Of a stretch of 64,000 bases of DNA, positions 2,723 through 63,311 are shown in pieces; position 1 is the first letter of the stretch; each line of letters opens with the position of its first letter. The notes under the pieces were generated by a model. That model did not search any database. It was not told the DNA's origin and worked only from the letters and a program-made list of their open reading frames with translations. The translations under genes and the position numbers were made by a program. This DNA is from Escherichia coli (lineage in GTDB: Bacteria; Pseudomonadota; Gammaproteobacteria; Enterobacterales; Enterobacteriaceae): assembly GCF_022846255.1 (NCBI RefSeq), contig NZ_AP025682.1; one strand, 5' to 3'.

Positions 2723-4048
2723 ATGAGCAAAGTAACTCCCCAGCCGAAAATCGGCTTTGTTTCCCTTGGCTGTCCGAAAAACCTTGTCGATTCAGAGCGT
2801 ATTCTCACCGAACTACGCACTGAAGGTTATGACGTGGTACCGAGCTATGATGATGCGGACATGGTGATCGTCAACACCTGCGGCTTTATTGACAGCGCGG
2901 TACAAGAATCACTGGAAGCCATTGGTGAAGCGTTGAATGAAAACGGCAAGGTAATTGTGACCGGTTGTCTGGGGGCAAAAGAAGATCAGATCCGCGAAGT
3001 CCACCCGAAAGTGCTGGAAATCACCGGGCCTCATAGCTATGAGCAGGTTCTGGAGCACGTTCATCACTACGTGCCAAAACCGAAACACAACCCATTCCTG
3101 AGCCTGGTGCCAGAACAAGGTGTGAAACTGACGCCGCGTCATTATGCCTATCTGAAAATTTCTGAAGGCTGTAATCACCGCTGCACCTTCTGCATTATTC
3201 CGTCTATGCGCGGCGATCTGGTGAGCCGTCCGATTGGCGAAGTGTTAAGTGAAGCGAAACGTCTGGTTGATGCGGGCGTTAAAGAAATTCTGGTGATCTC
3301 GCAGGATACTTCCGCGTATGGCGTCGATGTTAAACATCGTACTGGCTTCCACAACGGCGAGCCGGTAAAAACCAGCATGGTCAGCCTGTGCGAACAGTTA
3401 TCGAAACTGGGGATCTGGACACGTCTGCACTACGTTTACCCTTATCCGCATGTGGACGACGTCATCCCACTGATGGCAGAGGGCAAAATCCTGCCGTATC
3501 TGGACATTCCGTTGCAGCACGCCAGCCCGCGCATTCTCAAACTGATGAAACGTCCGGGTTCTGTAGATCGCCAACTGGCGCGCATCAAACAGTGGCGCAA
3601 AATCTGCCCGGAACTGACCCTACGCTCAACCTTTATTGTTGGCTTCCCTGGCGAGACGGAAGAAGATTTCCAGATGCTACTCGACTTCCTGAAAGAAGCA
3701 CGTCTGGATCGCGTTGGCTGCTTTAAATACAGCCCGGTTGAAGGTGCAGACGCCAATGCCCTGCCTGACCAGGTTCCGGAAGAAGTGAAAGAAGAACGCT
3801 GGAACCGTTTCATGCAGTTGCAGCAGCAAATTTCCGCCGAGCGCCTGCAAGAGAAAGTGGGCCGTGAAATTCTGGTGATTATCGACGAAGTGGACGAAGA
3901 AGGCGCGATTGGTCGCAGCATGGCAGATGCACCGGAAATCGACGGCGCGGTTTATCTCAATGGTGAAACCAACGTTAAGCCGGGTGATATCCTGCGAGTG
4001 AAAGTCGAGCACGCCGATGAGTACGATTTGTGGGGTAGCCGGGTTTAA
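2723..4048 (+). CDS. rimO: ribosomal protein S12 methylthiotransferase RimO (radical SAM, 441 aa)
   Basis: ORF track; radical-SAM CNHRCTFC motif and C-terminal TRAM-like region. Confidence 0.95.
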
Positions 4049-4054
4049 TTAATT

Positions 4055-4084
4055 CAGGCCGGGCAAAATCATTTGTCCGGCCTG
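4055..4084. terminator. hairpin between convergent rimO and dgcI
   Basis: inverted repeat caggccgggc ... gtccggcctg in the 46-nt gap between convergent stops; no strong T-run. Confidence 0.4.
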
Positions 4085-4094
4085 CGAATAATGA

Positions 4095-5423
4095 TTACTG
4101 CCAGCTAATCTGCGCCCTGCCGTTTTTCTTACTCTTATACAGCCGCTCATCCGCCAGCATTTTCAAACGTTCAACGGTAGTACATTCATTTGAATGCGCT
4201 ACACCGATACTGGTGCTTAAATTAATGCTTCCCACCTGGAAATGAACGATTTCTTTTAGAATCGATAGCAACTCTTCCAGCGTGCCGCCAGTATAAATCA
4301 CCGCAAATTCGTCACCTCCGAAGCGGTAAACTTTACCTTTATCTACCGGGATCTGTGATTTAAGGATTTTCACCACTTTCATCAACACTTCATCGCCCAG
4401 CAAATGACCGAAGGTGTCGTTAATGTTTTTGAATTTATCGACGTCAAACAGGCACAAATAACCGCCTTTTTCCGGCAGCGCTTTTAAATCTTCGTCAAAA
4501 GATTTTCTGCCCATCGCTTTGGTCAGATCGTCCAGGAATGCCGAGTTATACATACTGTAGAGTTTTTTGACATCGGCAGCCGAAAAGAAAAGCCCGCCAT
4601 CCAGTACGCGTTCAAAATGGTTATTAATAATGGCTTCTTTCTCCACAATACCACGATTAATCACTCTGCGTACCAGATAGAGGCAACTGGCACCCGATAT
4701 CACTGCCACCAATGCGGCAAAGAAAATAATCAATGTACATACCTGAAAATAAACGTCTTTTTTATAAGCAAATACGTACAACCCGGTCGGCAAATAGGAG
4801 AAGTGCTCCATTGCTTCCGAAACGGTGAAGATGGCGTTTTTAGCGTTATATTCATCACCGGTCACCGATTTACCGTTCTTGAACAGGGAGAACATCAGGT
4901 TCTCGCTATCCATCGCCAGCGATTTTGACAGTAAAGAAAAACGTTCCAGACCAAGCAAAAATATCAGACTACGATTGTGAGTTACCGGATAGAGGTAATA
5001 GACGAAGGTTTTACCATCAAAAGAGATAAACCCTGTATTTTTGACATGTCGATACTTAACAACCTGCATAATATCTGCACAATAATTTTTCTCGAACTCC
5101 TTTACCTGAATACATTCGTCACTGGAAATCAGATAAGGACCGACATCGTACAAATAAGAGGGTGAAACCGAGTCGGCGTAAGCTGTGCGTAAGCCAACCA
5201 ACAGCTGTTCCTCCGTAGGATTTAGCGTGTTGATGAGATCAATTGCCACACTACGCCGATATTCAGCAATATTTGCCACCGCAAAAGCAGTATCAATAAC
5301 GGACTGTTTCAGGCCATACACCCGTTCCTTTACCATTTGAGTGTAGATCCCGCAGGCAACTGCTGAAATCATGATAAAAATCAGCAGACTGACTGTAAGT
5401 ACGAATTTATTGATTCTGGACAT
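4095..5423 (-). CDS. dgcI: diguanylate cyclase (GGDEF) DgcI/YliF, membrane-anchored (442 aa)
   Basis: ORF track; N-terminal TM segment, C-terminal GGDEF domain with RFGGDEF motif. Confidence 0.9.
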
Positions 5424-20728: not shown

Positions 20729-21544
20729 ATGAGCGTAAAAGTTATCGTCACAGACATGGACGGTACTTTTCTTAACGACGCCAAAACGTACAACCAACCA
20801 CGTTTTATGGCGCAATATCAGGAACTGAAAAAGCGCGGCATTGAGTTCGTTGTCGCCAGCGGTAATCAGTATTACCAGCTTATTTCGTTCTTTCCTGAGC
20901 TAAAGGATGAGATCTCTTTTGTCGCGGAAAACGGCGCACTGGTTTACGAACATGGCAAGCAGTTGTTCCACGGCGAACTGACCCGACATGAATCGCGGAT
21001 TGTTATTGGCGAGTTGCTAAAAGATAAGCAACTCAATTTTGTCGCCTGCGGTCTGCAAAGTGCATATGTCAGCGAAAATGCCCCCGAAGCATTCGTCGCA
21101 CTGATGGCAAAACACTACCATCGCCTGAAACCTGTAAAAGATTATCAGGAGATTGACGACGTACTGTTCAAGTTTTCGCTCAACCTGCCGGATGAACAAA
21201 TCCCGTTAGTGATCGACAAACTGCACATAGCGCTGGATGGCATTATGAAACCCGTCACCAGTGGTTTTGGCTTTATCGACTTGATTATTCCCGGTCTACA
21301 TAAAGCAAACGGTATTTCGCGGTTACTGAAACGCTGGGATCTGTCACCGCAAAATGTGGTAGCGATTGGCGACAGCGGTAACGATGCGGAGATGCTGAAA
21401 ATGGCCCGTTATTCCTTTGCGATGAGCAATGCTGCGGAAAACATTAAACAAATCGCCCGTTACGCTACCGATGATAATAATCATGAAGGCGCGCTGAATG
21501 TGATTCAGGCGGTGCTGGAAAATAAACCGCCGTTTAATCTTTGA
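20729..21544 (+). CDS. ybiV: HAD-family (Cof-type) sugar phosphatase YbiV (271 aa)
   Basis: ORF track; DMDGT HAD motif I at N-terminus, GDSGND motif near C-terminus. Confidence 0.9.
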
Positions 21545-21582
21545 TTATCGCCAATTCAGTTTATTGAGAAAGTGCATGTCAT

Positions 21583-21683
21583 TATGCCGGATACGGCGTA
21601 ACCGCCTTATTTGGCATACAAAATCATGAAAATTCAATATATTGCGATACACTGCCAGGCCTGATAAGCGTAGCGCACCAGGC
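21583..21683. repeat. BIME-1/RIP-like element: degenerate REP, IHF-like linker, REP
   Basis: gccggatacggcgtaaccgccttatttggc, then linker with tcaatatattg (IHF-like WATCAAnnnnTTR), then gcctgataagcgtagcgcaccaggc; followed by hairpin cagtagccctga...tcagggctactg at about 21709..21737. Confidence 0.75.
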
Positions 21684-21743
21684 AATCTTGCGTTTGTCAT
21701 CAGTTTCAGTAGCCCTGACCACATCAGGGCTACTGATAATAAC

Positions 21744-32839: not shown

Positions 32840-33558
32840 TTGAATTTAAAAACGTCTCCAAGCATTTTGGTCCAACCCAGGTGCTGCACAATATCGATTT
32901 GAACATTGCTCAGGGCGAAGTCGTGGTGATTATCGGGCCGTCCGGTTCCGGTAAATCGACCCTGCTGCGCTGCATCAACAAACTGGAAGAAATCACCTCC
33001 GGCGATCTGATTGTCGATGGCCTGAAGGTTAACGATCCGAAAGTTGATGAGCGCCTGATTCGCCAGGAAGCGGGTATGGTGTTCCAGCAGTTTTACCTCT
33101 TCCCGCATCTGACGGCGCTGGAAAACGTCATGTTTGGCCCGCTACGCGTGCGTGGCGCGAATAAAGAAGAGGCGGAAAAACTGGCGCGTGAGCTGCTGGC
33201 GAAAGTCGGTCTGGCAGAGCGTGCACATCACTACCCTTCCGAACTTTCTGGTGGTCAACAGCAGCGTGTGGCGATTGCCCGCGCGCTGGCGGTGAAGCCG
33301 AAAATGATGCTGTTTGATGAACCGACTTCCGCTCTTGACCCGGAACTGCGCCATGAAGTGCTGAAGGTTATGCAGGATCTGGCTGAAGAAGGGATGACGA
33401 TGGTGATCGTGACCCACGAAATCGGTTTTGCCGAGAAAGTAGCTTCGCGCCTGATCTTTATCGACAAAGGCCGGATTGCAGAAGATGGCGATCCGCAGGT
33501 GTTGATCAAGAACCCGCCGAGCCAGCGCTTGCAGGAATTTTTGCAGCACGTCTCTTAA
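32836..33558 (+). CDS. glnQ: glutamine ABC transporter ATPase GlnQ (240 aa), GTG start overlapping glnP stop
   Basis: ORF track; GPSGSGKST Walker A, LSGGQQQR signature. Confidence 0.95.
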
Positions 33559-37623: not shown

Positions 37624-39906
37624 ATGGAAAACAATCGCAATTTCCCTGCCAGACAATTTCATTCGCTCACGTTCTTTGCCGGTCTTTGTATTGGTATTAC
37701 GCCTGTGGCACAGGCACTCGCTGCCGAAGGGCAAGCTAACGCGGATGACACGCTGGTTGTCGAAGCATCAACGCCTTCGCTTTATGCGCCACAACAATCT
37801 GCCGATCCGAAATTCTCGCGTCCGGTAGCGGATACTACCCGCACGATGACGGTGATTTCTGAACAAGTGATTAAAGATCAGGGTGCAACCAACCTTACCG
37901 ACGCACTCAAAAACGTCCCCGGCGTGGGTGCGTTTTTTGCGGGTGAGAACGGTAACTCCACCACTGGCGACGCCATTTATATGCGCGGTGCCGATACCTC
38001 TAACAGTATTTATATCGATGGCATTCGCGATATCGGCAGCGTCTCGCGCGACACCTTCAATACCGAGCAGGTCGAAGTAATTAAAGGGCCGTCCGGCACC
38101 GACTACGGGCGCAGCGCACCGACAGGCTCGATCAATATGATCAGCAAACAGCCGCGCAATGATTCCGGCATTGACGCCTCCGCCAGTATTGGCAGCGCCT
38201 GGTTCCGCCGCGGCACGCTGGACGTCAATCAGGTCATTGGTGATACCACTGCGGTGCGCCTGAATGTAATGGGCGAAAAAACGCACGATGCCGGACGCGA
38301 CAAAGTCAAAAATGAGCGTTACGGCGTCGCCCCTTCTGTCGCTTTTGGCCTTGGTACAGCGAATCGTTTGTATCTTAATTATCTGCATGTCACCCAGCAC
38401 AACACGCCAGACGGCGGCATTCCGACCATCGGTTTACCGGGTTATTCTGCCCCATCTGCGGGAACAGCAGCCCTGAATCATTCCGGAAAAGTTGATACTC
38501 ATAACTTTTACGGCACAGATTCCGATTACGACGATTCGACCACCGACACCGCTACCATGCGTTTTGAGCACGACATCAACGATAACACCACCATTCGCAA
38601 CACTACGCGTTGGTCGCGCGTAAAGCAGGATTACCTGATGACGGCGATTATGGGTGGAGCGTCGAATATTACCCAGCCCACCAGCGATGTGAATAGCTGG
38701 ACGTGGTCACGCACGGCGAATACCAAAGATGTGAGTAACAAAATTCTCACCAACCAGACCAACCTGACCTCGACGTTCTATACCGGCGCTATCGGTCATG
38801 ATCTCAGTACCGGCGTGGAATTTACCCGCGAAACACAGACTAACTATGGCGTTAATCCGGTGACGTTACCGGCGGTAAATATTTATCATCCTGACAGCAG
38901 CATTCATCCCGGCGGCCTGACGCGCAACGGCGCAAACGCCAATGGTCAGACGGATACCTTCGCAATTTATGCCTTCGATACGCTGCAAATCACCCGTGAT
39001 TTTGAGCTGAACGGCGGGATCCGTCTGGATAATTATCATACTGAATATGACAGTGCTACCGCCTGCGGCGGCAGCGGGCGCGGTGCCATCACCTGCCCTG
39101 CTGGCGTGGCAAAAGGTTCTCCGGTCACCACCGTCGACACCGCCAAGTCGGGCAATCTGGTGAACTGGAAAGCCGGGGCGCTGTATCACCTGACGGAAAA
39201 CGGCAATGTCTATATTAACTATGCCGTTTCCCAGCAGCCGCCGGGCGGCAACAACTTCGCCCTTGCGCAGTCTGGCAGCGGTAACAGTGCCAACCGCACC
39301 GATTTTAAACCACAAAAAGCCAACACCAGCGAGATTGGCACCAAATGGCAGGTTCTGGATAAACGCCTGCTACTTACCGCCGCGCTGTTCCGTACTGATA
39401 TTGAAAATGAAGTTGAGCAAAATGATGACGGGACTTATTCGCAATATGGTAAGAAACGTGTCGAAGGCTACGAGATATCCGTGGCCGGGAATATCACCCC
39501 CGCATGGCAGATGATTGGCGGCTATACCCAGCAAAAAGCAACTATCAAAAACGGCAAAGATGTTGCCCAGGATGGTTCCTCATCGCTGCCGTATACCCCG
39601 GAACACGCCTTCACCTTATGGAGCCAGTATCAGGCAACCGATGATATTTCTGTTGGTGCGGGCGCACGGTATATCGGCAGTATGCATAAAGTTTCAGACG
39701 GCGCGGTGGGGACGCCAGCATTTACCGAAGGTTATTGGGTCGCCGACGCCAAACTGGGGTATCGGGTTAATCGCAATCTCGACTTCCAGCTAAACGTCTA
39801 CAACCTGTTTGATACCGATTACGTCGCCTCAATCAATAAGAGCGGCTACCGTTATCACCCGGGCGAGCCAAGAACCTTCTTGCTCACAGCTAATATGCAT
39901 TTCTGA
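37624..39906 (+). CDS. fiu: TonB-dependent catecholate siderophore receptor Fiu (760 aa)
   Basis: ORF track; signal peptide, TonB box, C-terminal aromatic residue ...NMHF. Confidence 0.95.
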   Translation: MENNRNFPARQFHSLTFFAGLCIGITPVAQALAAEGQANADDTLVVEASTPSLYAPQQSADPKFSRPVADTTRTMTVISEQVIKDQGATNLTDALKNVPGVGAFFAGENGNSTTGDAIYMRGADTSNSIYIDGIRDIGSVSRDTFNTEQVEVIKGPSGTDYGRSAPTGSINMISKQPRNDSGIDASASIGSAWFRRGTLDVNQVIGDTTAVRLNVMGEKTHDAGRDKVKNERYGVAPSVAFGLGTANRLYLNYLHVTQHNTPDGGIPTIGLPGYSAPSAGTAALNHSGKVDTHNFYGTDSDYDDSTTDTATMRFEHDINDNTTIRNTTRWSRVKQDYLMTAIMGGASNITQPTSDVNSWTWSRTANTKDVSNKILTNQTNLTSTFYTGAIGHDLSTGVEFTRETQTNYGVNPVTLPAVNIYHPDSSIHPGGLTRNGANANGQTDTFAIYAFDTLQITRDFELNGGIRLDNYHTEYDSATACGGSGRGAITCPAGVAKGSPVTTVDTAKSGNLVNWKAGALYHLTENGNVYINYAVSQQPPGGNNFALAQSGSGNSANRTDFKPQKANTSEIGTKWQVLDKRLLLTAALFRTDIENEVEQNDDGTYSQYGKKRVEGYEISVAGNITPAWQMIGGYTQQKATIKNGKDVAQDGSSSLPYTPEHAFTLWSQYQATDDISVGAGARYIGSMHKVSDGAVGTPAFTEGYWVADAKLGYRVNRNLDFQLNVYNLFDTDYVASINKSGYRYHPGEPRTFLLTANMHF

Positions 39907-39956
39907 TTCAGATGTGGGGCGCAAGGCTCACTAATGTTGATGGCGAGAGCAGGACT

Positions 39957-40054
39957 GCCTGATGCGCTGCGCTTATCAGGCCTACAAGGTTGTGCAATAC
40001 ACTGAATTCACATCATTTGGTAGGCCGGATAAGGCGTTCACGCCGCATCCGGCA
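39957..40054. repeat. BIME: two inverted REP units with a roughly 34-nt linker
   Basis: gcctgatgcgctgcgcttatcaggcctac ... gtaggccggataaggcgttcacgccgcatccggca. Confidence 0.85.
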
Positions 40055-40084
40055 CCTGAGCACCATTGCCTGCTGTTAAAAATC

Positions 40085-40110
40085 GGTGTGGGGCGCAGGC
40101 CCCACTTTTT
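40085..40110 (+). terminator. hairpin plus T5 just upstream of ybiX
   Basis: gtgggg-cgcag-gcccca-c stem followed by TTTTT, 12 nt before the ybiX ATG. Confidence 0.5.
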
Positions 40111-40121
40111 GGAGAACTTGT

Positions 40122-40799
40122 ATGATGTACCACATTCCCGGCGTGTTATCGCCACAGGACGTCGCCCGTTTTCGCGAACAACTGGAACAAGCCGAATGGG
40201 TGGATGGGCGCGTCACCACCGGCGCACAAGGTGCGCAAGTTAAGAACAATCAACAAGTAGACACCCGCAGCGCCCTGTACGCCGCCCTGCAAAATGAGGT
40301 GCTGAACGCGGTTAACCAACATGCTTTGTTCTTTGCCGCGGCCTTGCCGCGTACCCTTTCCACGCCGCTGTTTAATCGCTATCAGAACAATGAAACCTAT
40401 GGTTTTCATGTGGATGGCGCAGTACGCAGCCATCCACAAAACGGCTGGATGCGCACTGACCTTTCTGCCACGCTGTTTTTAAGCGATCCAGAAAGCTACG
40501 ACGGCGGCGAACTGGTCGTTAATGACACCTTCGGGCAACATCGGGTAAAACTCCCGGCAGGCGATCTGGTGTTGTATCCCTCCAGCAGCCTGCATTGCGT
40601 GACACCCGTAACCCGCGGCGTGCGAGTGGCATCATTTATGTGGATCCAGTCGATGATCCGCGATGATAAAAAGCGCGCCATGCTGTTTGAACTGGACAAC
40701 AATATTCAGTCGCTGAAAAGCCACTACGGCGAAAGTGAAGAGATCCTGTCGCTGCTCAATCTTTATCATAATCTGCTGCGGGAATGGTCGGAGATCTGA
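40122..40799 (+). CDS. ybiX: Fe(II)/2-oxoglutarate-dependent PKHD-type hydroxylase YbiX (225 aa)
   Basis: ORF track trimmed to [12 protein letters not shown]; HxD...H iron motif (FHVDGAV ... SSLHCVT). Confidence 0.9.
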
Positions 40800-40872
40800 C
40801 GCTTGAACTGCCCGAGTTCGTCCCTATATTAGCTACACTTAACTGTACAAGCATTGATATGGGGAGGACGAT

Positions 40873-41139
40873 ATGGCATCCGGTTGGGCTAATGATGACG
40901 CCGTCAACGAACAGATCAACAGTACAATTGAAGATGCGATTGCCCGCGCTCGGGGTGAAATTCCGCGTGGCGAAAGCCTGTATGAATGTGAAGAGTGCGG
41001 AGCCCTCATCCCGCAGGCCCGTCGGGAAGCCATTCCTGGCGTGCGCTTATGCATTCATTGTCAGCAGGAGAAAGATTTACAAAAACCAGATTATACAGGA
41101 TATAATCGCAGAGGTTCGAAAGACAGCCAGTTACGTTAA
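40873..41139 (+). CDS. ybiI: DksA/TraR-family C4 zinc-finger protein YbiI (88 aa)
   Basis: ORF track; CxxC-N17-CxxC (YECEECGALI...LCIHCQQ). Confidence 0.9.
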   Translation: MASGWANDDAVNEQINSTIEDAIARARGEIPRGESLYECEECGALIPQARREAIPGVRLCIHCQQEKDLQKPDYTGYNRRGSKDSQLR

Positions 41140-46293: not shown

Positions 46294-46365
46294 TTGTGGC
46301 ATTTTTCGGTTTTCAGGGGTAATGGTTTTTCTGTTTCGGGAAAGCGGCTCGCAATAACCAGCAGG

Positions 46366-46563
46366 ATGATGCGTAAAGCGCTTCGCGCTAAATTCGAACA
46401 ACATGCAGAACTGCGTACACTCTTGCGGGCAACCGCGTCCGCAAAACTGGTTGAGCATACGCAAAATGATGCTTACTGGGGAGATGGCGGTAATGGTCAG
46501 GGCAAGAATCGCCTGGGGTACCTTTTAATGGCGTTGCGCGGACAATTGGCTGCGGAGAAGTAA
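46366..46563 (+). pseudogene. ybiA: 3' remnant of ybiA (DUF1768 N-glycosidase family); 5' two-thirds missing
   Basis: only the C-terminal roughly 65 codons (MMRKALRAKFEQHAEL...NDAYWGDGGNGQGKNRLGYLLMALRGQLAAEK) carry the family motif; the in-frame upstream open frame runs through the dinG LexA box and start codon. Confidence 0.7.
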
Positions 46564-46746: not shown

Positions 46747-46814
46747 TTTTGTGTTTGTCATCAGTCTCATGCCGGGCATAGCCCGGCATAAAAGATTACT
46801 GCGCAGCGGCAGGT

Positions 46815-63284: not shown

Positions 63285-63311
63285 CGAAGCCGGAAGAATA
63301 TTCCGGCTTCG
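63285..63311. terminator. hairpin between convergent ybhK and uvrB
   Basis: 10-bp stem gaagccggaa / ttccggcttc in the 37-nt gap between the two stops. Confidence 0.5.

Follow-up and report, generated by a model that had tools for sequence, protein, structure and literature searches.

The spacer between fiu and ybiX probably carries an old BIME-1 insertion bracketed by a duplicated hairpin, with the distal copy working as a leaky terminator; this is the best explanation overall. The direct repeat is the footprint of that old insertion, and the element and the duplicated hairpin together make up a 174-nt length polymorphism. The duplication of a terminator hairpin around an inserted BIME is confirmed as an observation, and its interpretation is supported. 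Coordinates (Table 1) are those of the window, the whole 64-kb stretch of Escherichia coli DNA that was analysed.

The BIME and the hairpin copies that bracket it

The fiu gene ends in a TGA codon (39904-39906). It is followed by ybiX, annotated in RefSeq as a PKHD-type Fe(II)/2-oxoglutarate hydroxylase and PiuC homologue, and relatives of YbiX adjoin fiu across Enterobacterales. The original prediction of an imperfect direct repeat bracketing a BIME between the two genes was verified, coordinates included: gatgtggggcgcaaggc lies at 39911-39927, five bases past the fiu stop codon, and ggtgtggggcgcaggcc at 40085-40101. The best ungapped register aligns TGTGGGGCGCAAGGCTCACT (39913-39932) with TGTGGGGCGCAGGCCCCACT (40087-40106), with 17 of 20 positions identical and a start-to-start distance of 174 nt between the two hairpin copies. 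Both copies contain the 11-mer TGTGGGGCGCA, which has no other exact occurrence in the window and one further place with a single mismatch. A 20-mer direct repeat matching at 17 or more positions anywhere in the 215-nt spacer arose in 3 of 2000 dinucleotide-preserving shuffles, and in 1 of 3000 shuffles the BIME flanks aligned locally with an equally good score.

The downstream copy (copy 2) is a hairpin followed by TTTTT shortly before ybiX, just as had been described. Its stem has seven pairs, six of them G-C (40088-40094 and 40099-40105, GTGGGGC and GCCCCAC), with a loop of four (GCAG) and the U tract at 40106-40110, 11 nt from the ybiX ATG. It folds at -15.6 kcal/mol (z = -2.64), has the sequence of the lone hairpin of BIME-free E. 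coli, and is the predicted active terminator and attenuator of fiu. The upstream copy (copy 1) is a relic. It carries two substitutions in the 3′ arm, folds no better than shuffles (-8.6 kcal/mol, z = -1.35), has no U tract (the next bases are AATGTTGA) and is not reported by a terminator scan. It nevertheless matches the Citrobacter-type hairpin TGTGGGGCGCAAGCCCCACT at 18 of 20 positions without gaps, terminal CACT included; the hairpin had been called partially duplicated, and the duplication stands, but the upstream copy comprises the full 20 nt. For the spacer as a whole, the minimum-energy structure is predicted to join the 5′ arm of copy 1 to the 3′ arm of copy 2.

Four diverged filled (BIME-carrying) lineages show almost no variation in copy 1 or on the Z side of the element. 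Copy 2 has decayed in two of these four (-7.9 and -6.1 kcal/mol), and in Pseudocitrobacter REPs stand in place of the hairpin at fiu-ybiX. Both the decay and the Pseudocitrobacter arrangement fit the REPs assuming the role of the hairpin.

Between the copies lie 154 nt (39933-40086) with two REPs in inverted orientation. A segment of roughly 160 nt carrying the BIME had been proposed; the segment between the copies is there, refined in that the element and its flank motifs fill all 154 nt. The insert is one complete BIME-1-type element, consisting of a flank, a short Z REP, an L linker, a Y REP and a second flank. BIME-1 is defined by z1 and y in single copy with a long linker L (PMC3333891). 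Here there is one pair of inverted Y and Z REPs, imperfect palindromes beside GTAG and CTAC, separated by 34 nt and not by the short S linker of BIME-2. The insert aligns end to end, flank motifs included, with the elements at 21.6 kb and 46.7 kb of the window and with K-12 BIMEs (MAFFT), and the stretch 39933-39955 aligns with the flank after the Z REP at both window sites and in a K-12 BIME. The element belongs to a multi-copy extragenic family, and the REPs of an 801-nt query give a median of 36 matches per E. coli genome. The sole Rfam hit in the spacer was the REP-derived naRNA4, below threshold (48.1 bits against a gathering score of 59.5), with the Z REP aligned to the naRNA4 Z hairpin with deletions relative to the longer Z hairpin of the model.

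The linker contains no match to the IHF consensus WATCAANNNNTTR at one mismatch or fewer within 39986-40019. The homologous stretch ATTCAGTGTATTG on the minus strand differs from it at two positions, so the IHF-like site is degenerate; the consensus is present, as ATTCAATATATTG, in the BIME-1 elements at 21632 and 46693. An IHF consensus in the BIME-1 L linker has been described as frequent, not obligatory. The Y-side flank is the most variable part of the insert and has two E. coli subtypes, a window type (467 genomes) and an E. whittamii-like type (90 genomes). In strain BH100N, IS1397 is inserted within the Y REP at about 40040.

We rejected a reading of the non-REP parts of the insert as unique filler of separate origin, as the MAFFT alignment places them among diverged BIME-1 flank motifs. 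A BLAST search for a donor locus (distant mode, E ≤10, 5,426 E. coli genomes) found 39921-39957 and 40052-40088 at fiu-ybiX only; the Z-side flank is too diverged for BLAST at other BIMEs, and the matches are the 557 filled genomes. A truncated third REP at the right side was suggested by the D2 repeat (GAGCAGGACTGCCTGATG / GAGCACCATTGCCTGCTG) and by the GCCTGC-GCAGGC pairing of naRNA4. It is disfavoured, since the pairing is found in the window subtype only and the Y-side flank motif explains the region better.

Table 1. Features of the fiu-ybiX locus in window coordinates
Feature	Coordinates	Strand	Basis
fiu CDS (catecholate siderophore receptor, 760 aa)	37624..39906	+	ORF list; RefSeq annotation of the 99.9% identical FEX669 locus
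Copy 1, decayed duplicate of the fiu-ybiX hairpin, TGTGGGGCGCAAGGCTCACT	39913..39932	+	17/20 to copy 2; 18/20 to Citrobacter-type hairpin
174-nt block missing from about 90% of E. coli	39933..40106	+	801-nt query vs 627-nt match in the majority of genomes; filled/empty alignments
Z-side flank motif, AATGTTGATGGCGAGAGCAGGAC, reverse complement of GTyyTG..GyCATCA..	39933..39955	+	alignment with other BIME-1 flanks
Short Z-type REP, TGCCTGATGCGCTGCGCTTATCAGGCCTAC, CTAC end (39982-39985)	39956..39985	+	inverted-repeat arms I1, I3; naRNA4; other BIME-1 Z REPs
L-type tail-to-tail linker, 34 nt	39986..40019	+	34 nt between arms I1; homologous to linkers at 21.6 kb and 46.7 kb
Y-type REP, inverted, GTAGGCCGGATAAGGCGTTCACGCCGCATCCGGCA, GTAG start (40020-40023)	40020..40054	+	arms I1-I3; naRNA4 positions 1-31 near-perfect
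Y-side flank motif, TTAAAAATCGG end	40055..40086	+	aligns with ..GACAA(A)GTGC..GTTGT.TTA (then TGCCGG) flanks of other BIME-1
Copy 2, intact hairpin and U5	40087..40110	+	terminator scan; fold; identity to BIME-free E. coli hairpin
ybiX: Shine-Dalgarno GGAG 40111-40114, ATG 40122, CDS end 40799	40111..40799	+	sequence; RefSeq annotation of identical loci

Filled and empty alleles and the origin of the repeat

The block is present in 557 of 5,426 complete E. coli genomes, as counted from the insert-specific flanks at this locus only. Carriers include CFT073, UTI89, Nissle 1917, ATCC 25922, NC101 and the E. coli type strain. Because its end points fall inside the repeat, the block could equally be drawn as 39913-40086 or 39924-40097. 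The BIME-free Escherichia spacers that were read (n = 8, including K-12-type and O157) are 41 nt long with one hairpin each. Other Enterobacterales agree: all 41 REP-free fiu-ybiX spacers (24 distinct sequences, from Citrobacter, Klebsiella, Kluyvera, Leclercia, Raoultella, Pantoea, Rouxiella, Serratia, Tatumella and others) have one uninterrupted hairpin of 7-10 bp, with several pair types at each stem position. This tabulation uses per-sequence folds; RNAalifold on a MAFFT alignment of 34 spacers gave only four pairs, with the Klebsiella and Tatumella stems out of register.

A comparison with loci lacking the BIME had been proposed as the way to refute the duplication, and none of them (the 8 Escherichia and 41 other spacers) keeps both copies of the motif. 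In the Escherichia alleles read, copy 1 is tied perfectly to the insertion (4 filled, 8 empty). The repeat thus stands at both ends of the insert and is single in the empty site, as in a target duplication. Since all genera outside Escherichia have a single hairpin, the deeper ancestral state is the empty one, and the comparison reconstructs the ancestral spacer as about 41 nt with one GC-rich hairpin, a U-rich stretch and the ybiX ribosome-binding site. Within Escherichia the direction of change is ambiguous: the BIME is carried by E. whittamii, Escherichia sp. MOD1-EC7003 and two E. coli groups, and its carriers form no cluster in flank sequence.

The duplication most likely arose from a replication or template-switch event at the hairpin, not from canonical single-strand transposition by the REP-associated transposase. 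Single-strand transposition of the IS200/IS605 kind makes no target duplication. A fixed, short duplication is not common to the family, as shuffle tests on five other BIMEs (three in the window and two K-12-only elements with empty sites in the window) detected no significant flanking repeat. At the K-12-only BIMEs, near 33556 and 63308, the apparent repeats CTTAATA and TTCCG..GTCATC were not significant (568 and 2026 of 3000 shuffles, respectively), and the latter is part of the BIME-1 flank motif and not a target repeat. A local tandem duplication preceding the BIME was also rejected, the insert flanks having no significant similarity to the fiu 3′ or ybiX 5′ ends (best p = 0.21). We speculate, with considerable doubt, that BIME-1 elements may insert at native terminator hairpins through a replicative or template-switch mechanism that depends on the hairpin and duplicates it entirely, and that such an insertion would be exactly reversible. 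The REPs would then replace the decaying hairpin, and fiu-ybiX would be a recurrent landing site that acts as an on/off dial for ybiX.

Within Escherichia the BIME-carrying state could instead be the older one, with most empty E. coli alleles being secondary losses, through recombination between the copies or replacement by an empty allele, and the repeat mainly a substrate for excision and not the scar of a recent insertion. We consider this rather unlikely. In its favour, filled alleles are spread over E. whittamii, MOD1-EC7003, B2-type E. coli (467) and a second E. coli group (90); filled strain 100248 is nearer K-12 and O157 than the window, empty strain 4/1-1 is just 1.1% from the window, and each loop variant (GCAG or GAAA) is found both with and without the BIME. 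A crossover in TGTGGGGCGCA, or in GTGGGG in the whittamii type, would restore the observed empty alleles exactly. Against an older filled state are the single hairpin of every non-Escherichia genus and the divergence of E. whittamii from the window, 9.3% in fiu but 2.6% on the ybiX side. This contrast shows inter-species recombination at the locus, and the patchy distribution could therefore stem from transfer of filled alleles. No empty allele was found nested in a filled haplotype, and 4/1-1 lacks the window-type SNP at 39891. A narrower account is that only the 11-nt TGTGGGGCGCA was duplicated, or was microhomology, and that the element entered the hairpin loop; the remaining AGGCTCACT would be incoming DNA that resembles the 3′ arm by chance. 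Exact identity between the copies does end after 11 nt, cmscan weakly pairs GGCTC (39925-39929) with GAGC (39947-39950) as a decayed REP stem (E = 0.13), and the pairing of the outer arms in the predicted fold would make the insert a giant loop insertion. The account is nonetheless very unlikely, given the ungapped match of copy 1 to the Citrobacter-type hairpin through CACT and the start of the Z-side flank motif only after CACT, at 39933, which leaves 39924-39932 not explained by the element.

Selection offers another reading, which we judge quite unlikely: copy 1, the BIME and copy 2 would be an adaptive module that strengthens the terminator and shields it from ribosomes, favoured by selection in extraintestinal strains of B2 type for uncoupling ybiX from fiu. 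CFT073, UTI89, Nissle 1917, ATCC 25922 and NC101 are known extraintestinal or probiotic strains, copy 1 and the Z side are near-invariant over four diverged lineages, the CFT073 Fur regulon list lacks ybiX, and an IS insertion in the same spacer of a laboratory strain was selected under cefiderocol (bioRxiv 10.1101/2025.02.14.638246). Yet copy 1 is no more stable than its shuffles and lacks a U tract, two filled lineages have a decayed copy 2, and about half of the genomes with B2-like flanks are without the block (1,025 at ≥99% to the window, against 467 window-type filled). Reading empty against filled alleles effectively rules out a chance resemblance of two GC-rich stretches. The copies are short and GC-rich, and the 11-mer recurs once in the window with one mismatch, but shuffles seldom reached the observed scores, copy 1 tracks the insertion among the 4 filled and 8 empty alleles, and none of the 41 REP-free spacers from other genera contains it.

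Termination in K-12 and the predicted effect of the BIME

The fiu and ybiX genes are regarded as one Fur-repressed operon (PMC4676285). In BIME-free K-12, Term-seq places a 'primary' fiu 3′ end at 839219(-), between ...GTGGGGCGCAGGCCCCACTTTTT and GGAG (PMC7815308, supplementary file 1); this end is the U tract of the hairpin, in the context ...GCCCCACTTTTT followed by GGAG. Length-normalised RNA-seq of a fur deletion gives about 1860/1665 for fiu, 387/374 for ybiX and 191/179 for ybiI (PMC10164565, Dataset 3). The ybiX/fiu ratio is about 0.21 for MG1655 and 0.17 for W3110; in the same table the car and leu operons are flat. The 3′ end at the U tract and a ybiX level about 0.2 of that of fiu identify the K-12 hairpin as a leaky, 3′-end-forming intra-operon terminator. 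When Fur repression is lifted, the U tract is where most fiu transcripts end, and about one fifth reach ybiX and fewer ybiI, an efficiency estimated indirectly from the RNA ratio. The original prediction that the hairpin modulates read-through from the Fur-regulated fiu promoter into ybiX is thus borne out for the BIME-free K-12 allele by Term-seq and RNA-seq, and uniform coverage from fiu into ybiX, which had been named as its refutation, is absent from that allele. The Term-seq end could instead be a processed end that the hairpin protects, and not the point of termination. Outside E. coli the U tract is little conserved, the 8 nt that follow the stem containing 1-7 T, and its weakness or absence in many genera suggests that the conserved role may be RNA 3′-end protection as much as termination.

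In filled strains, transcripts from the fiu promoter would cross the dead copy 1 and two REP hairpins before reaching the intact copy 2. The terminator would be shifted from 7 nt to 181 nt past the fiu stop codon, beyond the reach of the terminating ribosome. REPs at other loci are partial Rho-dependent terminators and exonuclease barriers, and may act similarly here. The expected net result would be an unchanged or lower amount of ybiX per fiu transcript. As the block is flanked by a direct repeat, it could be lost exactly, through recombination between the copies or allelic replacement. We found no sigma-70-like site in 39900-40120, and a new ybiX promoter inside the insert is rejected.

An influence of the BIME on ybiX is hinted at by the CFT073 Fur list, by REP325 (discussed below) and by the decay of the hairpin. 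Fur regulon lists include ybiX in 8 of 9 strains, the exception being CFT073, a BIME carrier, in which the Fur-bound transcription unit is listed as fiu alone. The 'N/A' for ybiX in CFT073 may be no more than an outcome of the way in which transcription units were drawn over the 215-nt gap. Searching the literature for data on ybiX in CFT073, UTI89 or Nissle yielded nothing usable.

The Fiu receptor has the product of ybiX, a dioxygenase of PiuC/CciO type, as its partner. The homologous dioxygenase of Caulobacter is needed for receptor function (PMC12004947). In E. coli, where the IS insertion in this spacer was selected under cefiderocol, a cirA ybiX double deletion strongly raises the MIC (bioRxiv 10.1101/2025.02.14.638246). 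A BIME that alters ybiX per fiu transcript could thus shift the uptake of catecholates and siderophore antibiotics, with a predicted contrast between the B2-type strains CFT073, UTI89 and Nissle and K-12 or O157. Present in about one tenth of E. coli strains, the block provides a natural before/after allele pair for an intra-operon BIME insertion across thousands of genomes. The target hairpin is among the few spacer hairpins with both deep comparative support and published 3′-end mapping. Its 20-bp duplication is a concrete constraint on models of REP insertion in vivo, the mechanism of which is not established in the literature.

Comparison with known systems

The element resembles the BIME-1, RIB and RIP elements of E. 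coli, reportedly described by Gilson, Bachellier and Hofnung and by Boccard and Prentki in 1993. Shared features are inverted tail-to-tail Y and short Z REPs in single copy, a linker of about 34 nt, conserved flanks, a location where a transcription unit ends, beside a terminator hairpin, and presence that varies between strains. It differs in its degenerate IHF-like site and in its place inside an operon, between co-oriented genes. The 20-nt duplication of its target hairpin, with one copy on either side, also sets it apart from the five other BIMEs.

The REP between malE and malF is said to be an intra-operon attenuator and mRNA stabiliser (Newbury and colleagues, 1987). REP325 of the yjdM-yjdN operon, a tandem gene pair, partially terminates transcription through Rho and also stabilises mRNA (bioRxiv 10.64898/2026.03.23.713779). 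As in both of these, REP hairpins lie between co-transcribed genes at fiu-ybiX, and by analogy more upstream than downstream transcript would be expected, through partial termination and a block to 3′ exonucleases. The difference is that at fiu-ybiX a native leaky terminator predates the BIME and persists downstream of it. That terminator is like other leaky intrinsic intra-operon terminators in its 7-bp GC stem, tetraloop and U5, with a K-12 3′ end at the U tract and about 20% read-through. It is unlike the usual ones in its tight placement, with the K-12-type hairpin beginning 7 nt past the stop codon and ending 5 nt before the Shine-Dalgarno sequence.

As in the REPINs that are reportedly mobilised by RAYT / TnpA_REP (Bertels and Rainey in 2011, Ton-Hoang and colleagues in 2012), the inverted REP doublet is the presumed mobile unit. 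The fiu-ybiX insert differs in its target duplication, which IS200/IS605-like transposition does not make, and tnpA_REP is absent from seven B2 strains examined (PMC3333891). Like MITEs and IS elements, the insert is a non-coding stretch of about 150 nt, foldable as a long hairpin, with a direct target repeat at its ends. MITEs have short, exact duplications of fixed length and terminal inverted repeats matched to a transposase; the repeat here is 20 nt long, imperfect and a whole structural element, and REPs are stated to be without MITE signatures (PMC3184786). The fiu-ybiX BIME adds a fresh case to a type of event that is already known, and does not represent a novel system.

Duplicated hairpin around the BIME

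The fiu-ybiX spacer contains two copies of a motif that bracket a BIME, and the second copy forms a hairpin followed by TTTTT, as the original prediction held; sequence and coordinates are confirmed (Table). In the best register returned by a repeat finder the copies are identical at 17/20 positions and spaced 174 nt apart. The 11-mer TGTGGGGCGCA is common to both and has no other exact match in the 64-kb window. An equally good direct repeat appeared in 3 of 2000 dinucleotide shuffles of the 215-nt spacer, and the alignment score of the left against the right BIME flank was reached in 1 of 3000 shuffles. The insert also contains a second direct repeat (14/18).

Table. Features of the fiu-ybiX spacer in window coordinates
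Feature	Coordinates	Strand	Sequence or description	Source
fiu stop codon	39904-39906	+	TGA	ORF list
Upstream motif of the original prediction	39911-39927		gatgtggggcgcaaggc	read from sequence
Copy 1, fiu side	39913-39932		TGTGGGGCGCAAGGCTCACT	repeat finder
Direct repeat within insert, left	39947-39964		GAGCAGGACTGCCTGATG	
REP	39956-39985		between the copies	
REP	40020-40054		inverted relative to the other REP, 34 nt apart	
Direct repeat within insert, right	40058-40075		GAGCACCATTGCCTGCTG	
Downstream motif of the original prediction	40085-40101		ggtgtggggcgcaggcc	read from sequence
Copy 2, ybiX side	40087-40106		TGTGGGGCGCAGGCCCCACT; hairpin of 7 bp, G+C-rich, loop GCAG	repeat finder
T tract	40106-40110		TTTTT	
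ybiX Shine-Dalgarno	40111-40114		GGAG	sequence
ybiX start codon	40122		ATG	sequence

With an 801-nt query spanning the spacer, most of the query length was matched in 5,316 complete E. coli genomes; the match covers 627 nt in the majority of these, exactly 174 nt less. Alignments place a 41-nt spacer with one hairpin (...TTTCTGATTCAGATGTGGGGCGCAGGCCCCACTTTTTGGAGAA.TTGTATG) in empty alleles, those that lack the BIME (a K-12-type strain, O157, 4/1-1, VCSW7, and EC07), and two hairpins with the BIME between them in the filled alleles of the window and strain FEX669. The empty alleles read carry one hairpin copy, not both, and the comparison of filled with empty alleles supports a terminator-like hairpin duplicated around an inserted repeat. 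Filled alleles occur in 557 of 5,426 E. coli genomes, at a single locus each time; a left-junction query and two queries on non-REP parts of the insert found the same genomes. They include CFT073, UTI89, Nissle 1917, ATCC 25922, NC101, APEC IMT5155, and the type strain ATCC 11775. The insert is of the window's subtype in 467 genomes and has a different stretch adjoining the Y REP in 90. Strain BH100N (NZ_CP025703.1) has the IS3-family element IS1397 in the Y REP of the same BIME (3441-4958 of its locus, L006); its match to the window ends at 40040, in the REP loop, and IS1397 adds ~1.5 kb between fiu and ybiX. REPs are a known target of IS1397 (PMC3184786).

The insert is a BIME-1-type element by the definition quoted in PMC3333891 (z1 and y in single copy, with a long linker L that frequently has an IHF site). 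A multiple alignment combined the insert, reverse-complemented, with two K-12 BIMEs and with the REP pairs that lie at 21.6 kb and 46.7 kb of the window. The insert is homologous end to end with the other BIMEs aligned, in the order Y-side flank motif (..GACAA(A)GTGC..GTTGT.TTA|TGCCGG), Y REP, L linker, short Z REP, and Z-side flank motif (GTyyTG..GyCATCA..). Given this homology, the 174 nt comprise a complete 154-nt BIME-1 (39933-40086) and an extra 20-nt hairpin copy. The alignment overturned a first reading of the insert's outer ends, 23 nt on the Z REP side and 32 nt on the Y REP side, as unique filler. The non-REP parts have no BLAST match beyond this locus in the 5,426 E. coli genomes and no resemblance to neighbouring coding sequence. 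The IHF-like site of the insert is degenerate, with no match at <=1 mismatch; the BIME-1 elements at 21632 and 46693 have an IHF site matched at <=1 mismatch. In Rfam the only match, naRNA4 (a model derived from a REP unit), is below threshold (48.1 bits; gathering score, 59.5). Pairing of GCCTGC (40068-40073) with GCAGGC of the hairpin (40095-40100) is possible in the window subtype alone and is aligned by the naRNA4 model as a Z-REP outer stem.

Two other differences from K-12 were seen. At 21537-21584, adjoining the BIME-1 element at ~21586-21690, K-12 is ~1.46 kb longer, including ybiU (a DUF1479 protein), and the window strain has 46 nt instead. At 46362-46373, ~288 bp covering the ybiA start codon and 5′ part are missing relative to K-12, and the deletion end points have a short ATGCG microhomology in common.

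Ancestral hairpin and origin of the duplication

A scan for YbiX relatives, one genome per species, returned 80 loci, 46 of them enterobacterial, and fiu lies immediately upstream in 45 of the 46. One uninterrupted 7-10 bp hairpin lies between the fiu stop and the ybiX Shine-Dalgarno in 41/41 REP-free spacers (4 Escherichia; the rest Citrobacter, Klebsiella, Raoultella, Kluyvera, Leclercia, Silvania, Pantoea, Rouxiella, Serratia, and Tatumella), with whole-spacer fold energies of -15 to -22 kcal/mol. The 24 distinct hairpin sequences have standard pairs at all stem positions and several pair types at each (for example, GTGGGGC/GCCCCAC, GCGGGGCG/CGCCCCGC, GCCGCAG/CTGCGGC, and CCACCTG/CAGGTGG), and loops are frequently GNRA or UUCG tetraloops. 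The stretch 3′ of the stem is far less conserved than the hairpin (1-7 T in 8 nt). These spacers show that the hairpin is old and conserved in structure; above the genus level, the ancestral state lacks the BIME.

In three Pseudocitrobacter genomes (L029, L032, and L033; 2920-3000 of each locus), REP palindromes are at the site and the native hairpin is gone. The palindromes abut the Shine-Dalgarno (examples are GTAGGCCTGATAAGCGTAGCGCATCAGGCA and the perfect palindrome GCGCTGCGCTT...AAGCGCAGCGC), and REPs seem to have come to occupy this site independently. In P. faecalis, the first 15 nt (ACCGGGGCGCTGCGC) match the Klebsiella michiganensis hairpin (ACCGGGGCGGCTGCGC).

Copy 1 matches the Citrobacter-type hairpin TGTGGGGCGCAAGCCCCACT at 18/20 positions with no gap, and therefore the whole 20-nt hairpin was duplicated, not part of it as originally predicted; copy 1 acquired two 3′-arm substitutions afterwards. 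Duplication of only the 11-mer, with insertion into the hairpin loop, is less likely in view of this gapless match and of a BIME flank motif that starts only after CACT. A fixed-length transposase stagger is unlikely because no significant flank repeat was found at five other BIMEs tested (three in the window and two K-12-only with empty window sites) and REP mobility is modelled on IS200/IS605-like single-strand transposition, which leaves the target unduplicated. REPs are stated to be without MITE signatures (PMC3184786). The simplest account of the whole-hairpin duplication, which we only infer, is a replication or template-switch accident where a hairpin can form.

At two other BIME-1 elements (46750-46775 and 21690-21720), the Z-side flank motif is immediately followed by a GC-rich hairpin of the neighbouring minus-strand gene (rhlE at 46.7 kb), with no T tract between hairpin and BIME, the same arrangement as at copy 1. 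The sequences suggest a placement of BIME-1 elements at the 3′ foot of terminator hairpins. Two K-12-only REP-pair BIMEs, absent from the window strain, lie at window ~33556 (~140 nt) and ~63308 (~150 nt), both between a stop codon and a terminator-like hairpin. The adjacent hairpin at 63308 is degenerate in the K-12 allele and perfect in the window, and a Term-seq 3′ end is reported at the hairpin of the ~33556 site (845561(-); PMC7815308).

The same insertion with identical junctions is found in E. whittamii, Escherichia sp. MOD1-EC7003, and E. coli 100248, and filled alleles do not cluster by flank sequence. The fiu gene of 100248 (filled) diverges 4.7% from the window and ~3% from K-12 and O157; the empty strain 4/1-1 is 1.1% from the window. 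Each hairpin-loop variant occurs both with and without the BIME, which gives all four combinations. Given the shared junctions across species and the scattered filled alleles, the insertion event is old, and its present distribution reflects recombination, repeated loss, or both. Over 38700-41000, E. whittamii (L009) differs from the window by 9.3% in the 3′ part of fiu vs 2.6% on the ybiX side, which points to inter-species recombination with a breakpoint near the spacer. The E. whittamii YbiX is 99% identical to the window's. A crossover in the shared 5′ part of the copies would give exactly the observed empty alleles, and no direct sign of such excision was found among the alleles compared. 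In the genome set of Ton-Hoang et al. (PMC3333891), the seven without tnpA_REP are all of the B2 clade, so current transposase activity does not explain the allele in those strains.

Hairpin function and possible effect of the BIME

A 'primary' Term-seq 3′ end of fiu in MG1655 is listed at 839219(-), printed in the context ACAGCCAATATGCATTTCTGATTCAGATGTGGGGCGCAGGCCCCACTTTTTGGAGAAATTG (Adams et al., PMC7815308, supplementary file 1). Given 10 nt shown downstream, it is the last U of the U5 tract, and an independent coordinate estimate agrees within 1 nt. From its late file position we infer that the entry is from the minimal-medium sample, where fiu is derepressed. The two genes are treated as one Fur-repressed operon (PMC4676285; PMC10164565 Dataset 2). 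In fur deletion strains, RNA values for fiu, ybiX, and ybiI are 1862/1665, 387/374, and 191/179 in MG1655 and 2375/2334, 405/393, and 72/69 in W3110 (PMC10164565, Dataset 3); ybiX RNA is therefore ~0.17-0.21 of fiu RNA. The Dataset 3 values are length-normalised, as carA/carB and leuA-D are equal despite large length differences. Based on the published Term-seq end at the U tract and this RNA ratio in BIME-free K-12, the hairpin is the fiu 3′-end determinant and a leaky barrier before ybiX in the BIME-free allele. The data fit both termination and trimming back to the hairpin; the weak U tracts of other genera are in line with the latter.

A terminator scan reports copy 2, which by itself has a fold energy of -15.6 kcal/mol (z = -2.64). 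Copy 1 is not reported, folds no better than shuffles (-8.6 kcal/mol, z = -1.35), and has no T tract 3′ of it. The K-12 41-nt spacer folds at -19.3 kcal/mol (z = -3.8). The predicted minimum-energy fold of the whole 221-nt spacer joins the 5′ arm of copy 1 to the 3′ arm of copy 2, and the ancestral helix would close around the insert, a thermodynamic prediction only. In the predicted fold of a K-12-type spacer (L002, 1808-1848), UUCAGA just 3′ of the fiu stop pairs with UUUGGA, which lengthens the hairpin and brings it to -19.3 kcal/mol. In the window these are 39907-39912 and 40108-40113, and UUUGGA is the U-tract end and part of the ybiX Shine-Dalgarno. Through this pairing, translation of ybiX may depend on where fiu translation terminates; the BIME allele could form it at long range only. 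Similar stop-adjacent UCC/GGA pairings are predicted in many genera.

The intact terminator of the filled allele lies 181 nt beyond the fiu stop codon, vs 7 nt in the empty allele, so that a ribosome at the stop codon could no longer overlap the terminator 5′ arm, and two REP hairpins precede the terminator. REP325, which separates two co-transcribed genes, was recently found to serve both as a partly Rho-dependent terminator and as a stabiliser of mRNA (bioRxiv 10.64898/2026.03.23.713779). A ybiX fold change is listed in 8 of 9 Fur pan-regulon strains and is 'N/A' in CFT073, where the Fur-bound transcription unit is given as fiu alone (PMC10164565). The comparison of BIME state covers CFT073, which carries the BIME, and K-12 and the O157 genomes N8B7-2 and EDL933 (rather than Sakai itself), which are BIME-free. 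The 'N/A' may be an artefact of how transcription units were delimited, which the methods text leaves unstated (PMC10164565).

Copy 2 has decayed in two of four filled lineages (E. coli 100248, -7.9 kcal/mol; Escherichia sp. MOD1-EC7003, -6.1 kcal/mol), and all 41 REP-free spacers fold at -15 kcal/mol or more stably. The stem mismatches are in L005 1698-1736 and L011 2955-2993, the loci of these two strains. Almost no variation is seen in copy 1 or on the Z side of the BIME. A possible reason for the decay is that, with REPs in place, constraint on the native terminator relaxes. Together, the CFT073, copy 2, and Pseudocitrobacter observations fit functional overlap of REPs and the native hairpin.

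At fiu-ybiX, a conserved intra-operon terminator with experimental support carries a BIME-1 insertion that is polymorphic among strains, and duplication of the whole target hairpin is unusual. That BIMEs vary in presence between strains and that REPs affect operon polarity is already known; new are the locus itself and its distribution, the duplication of the target, and a native hairpin that has apparently decayed or been replaced.
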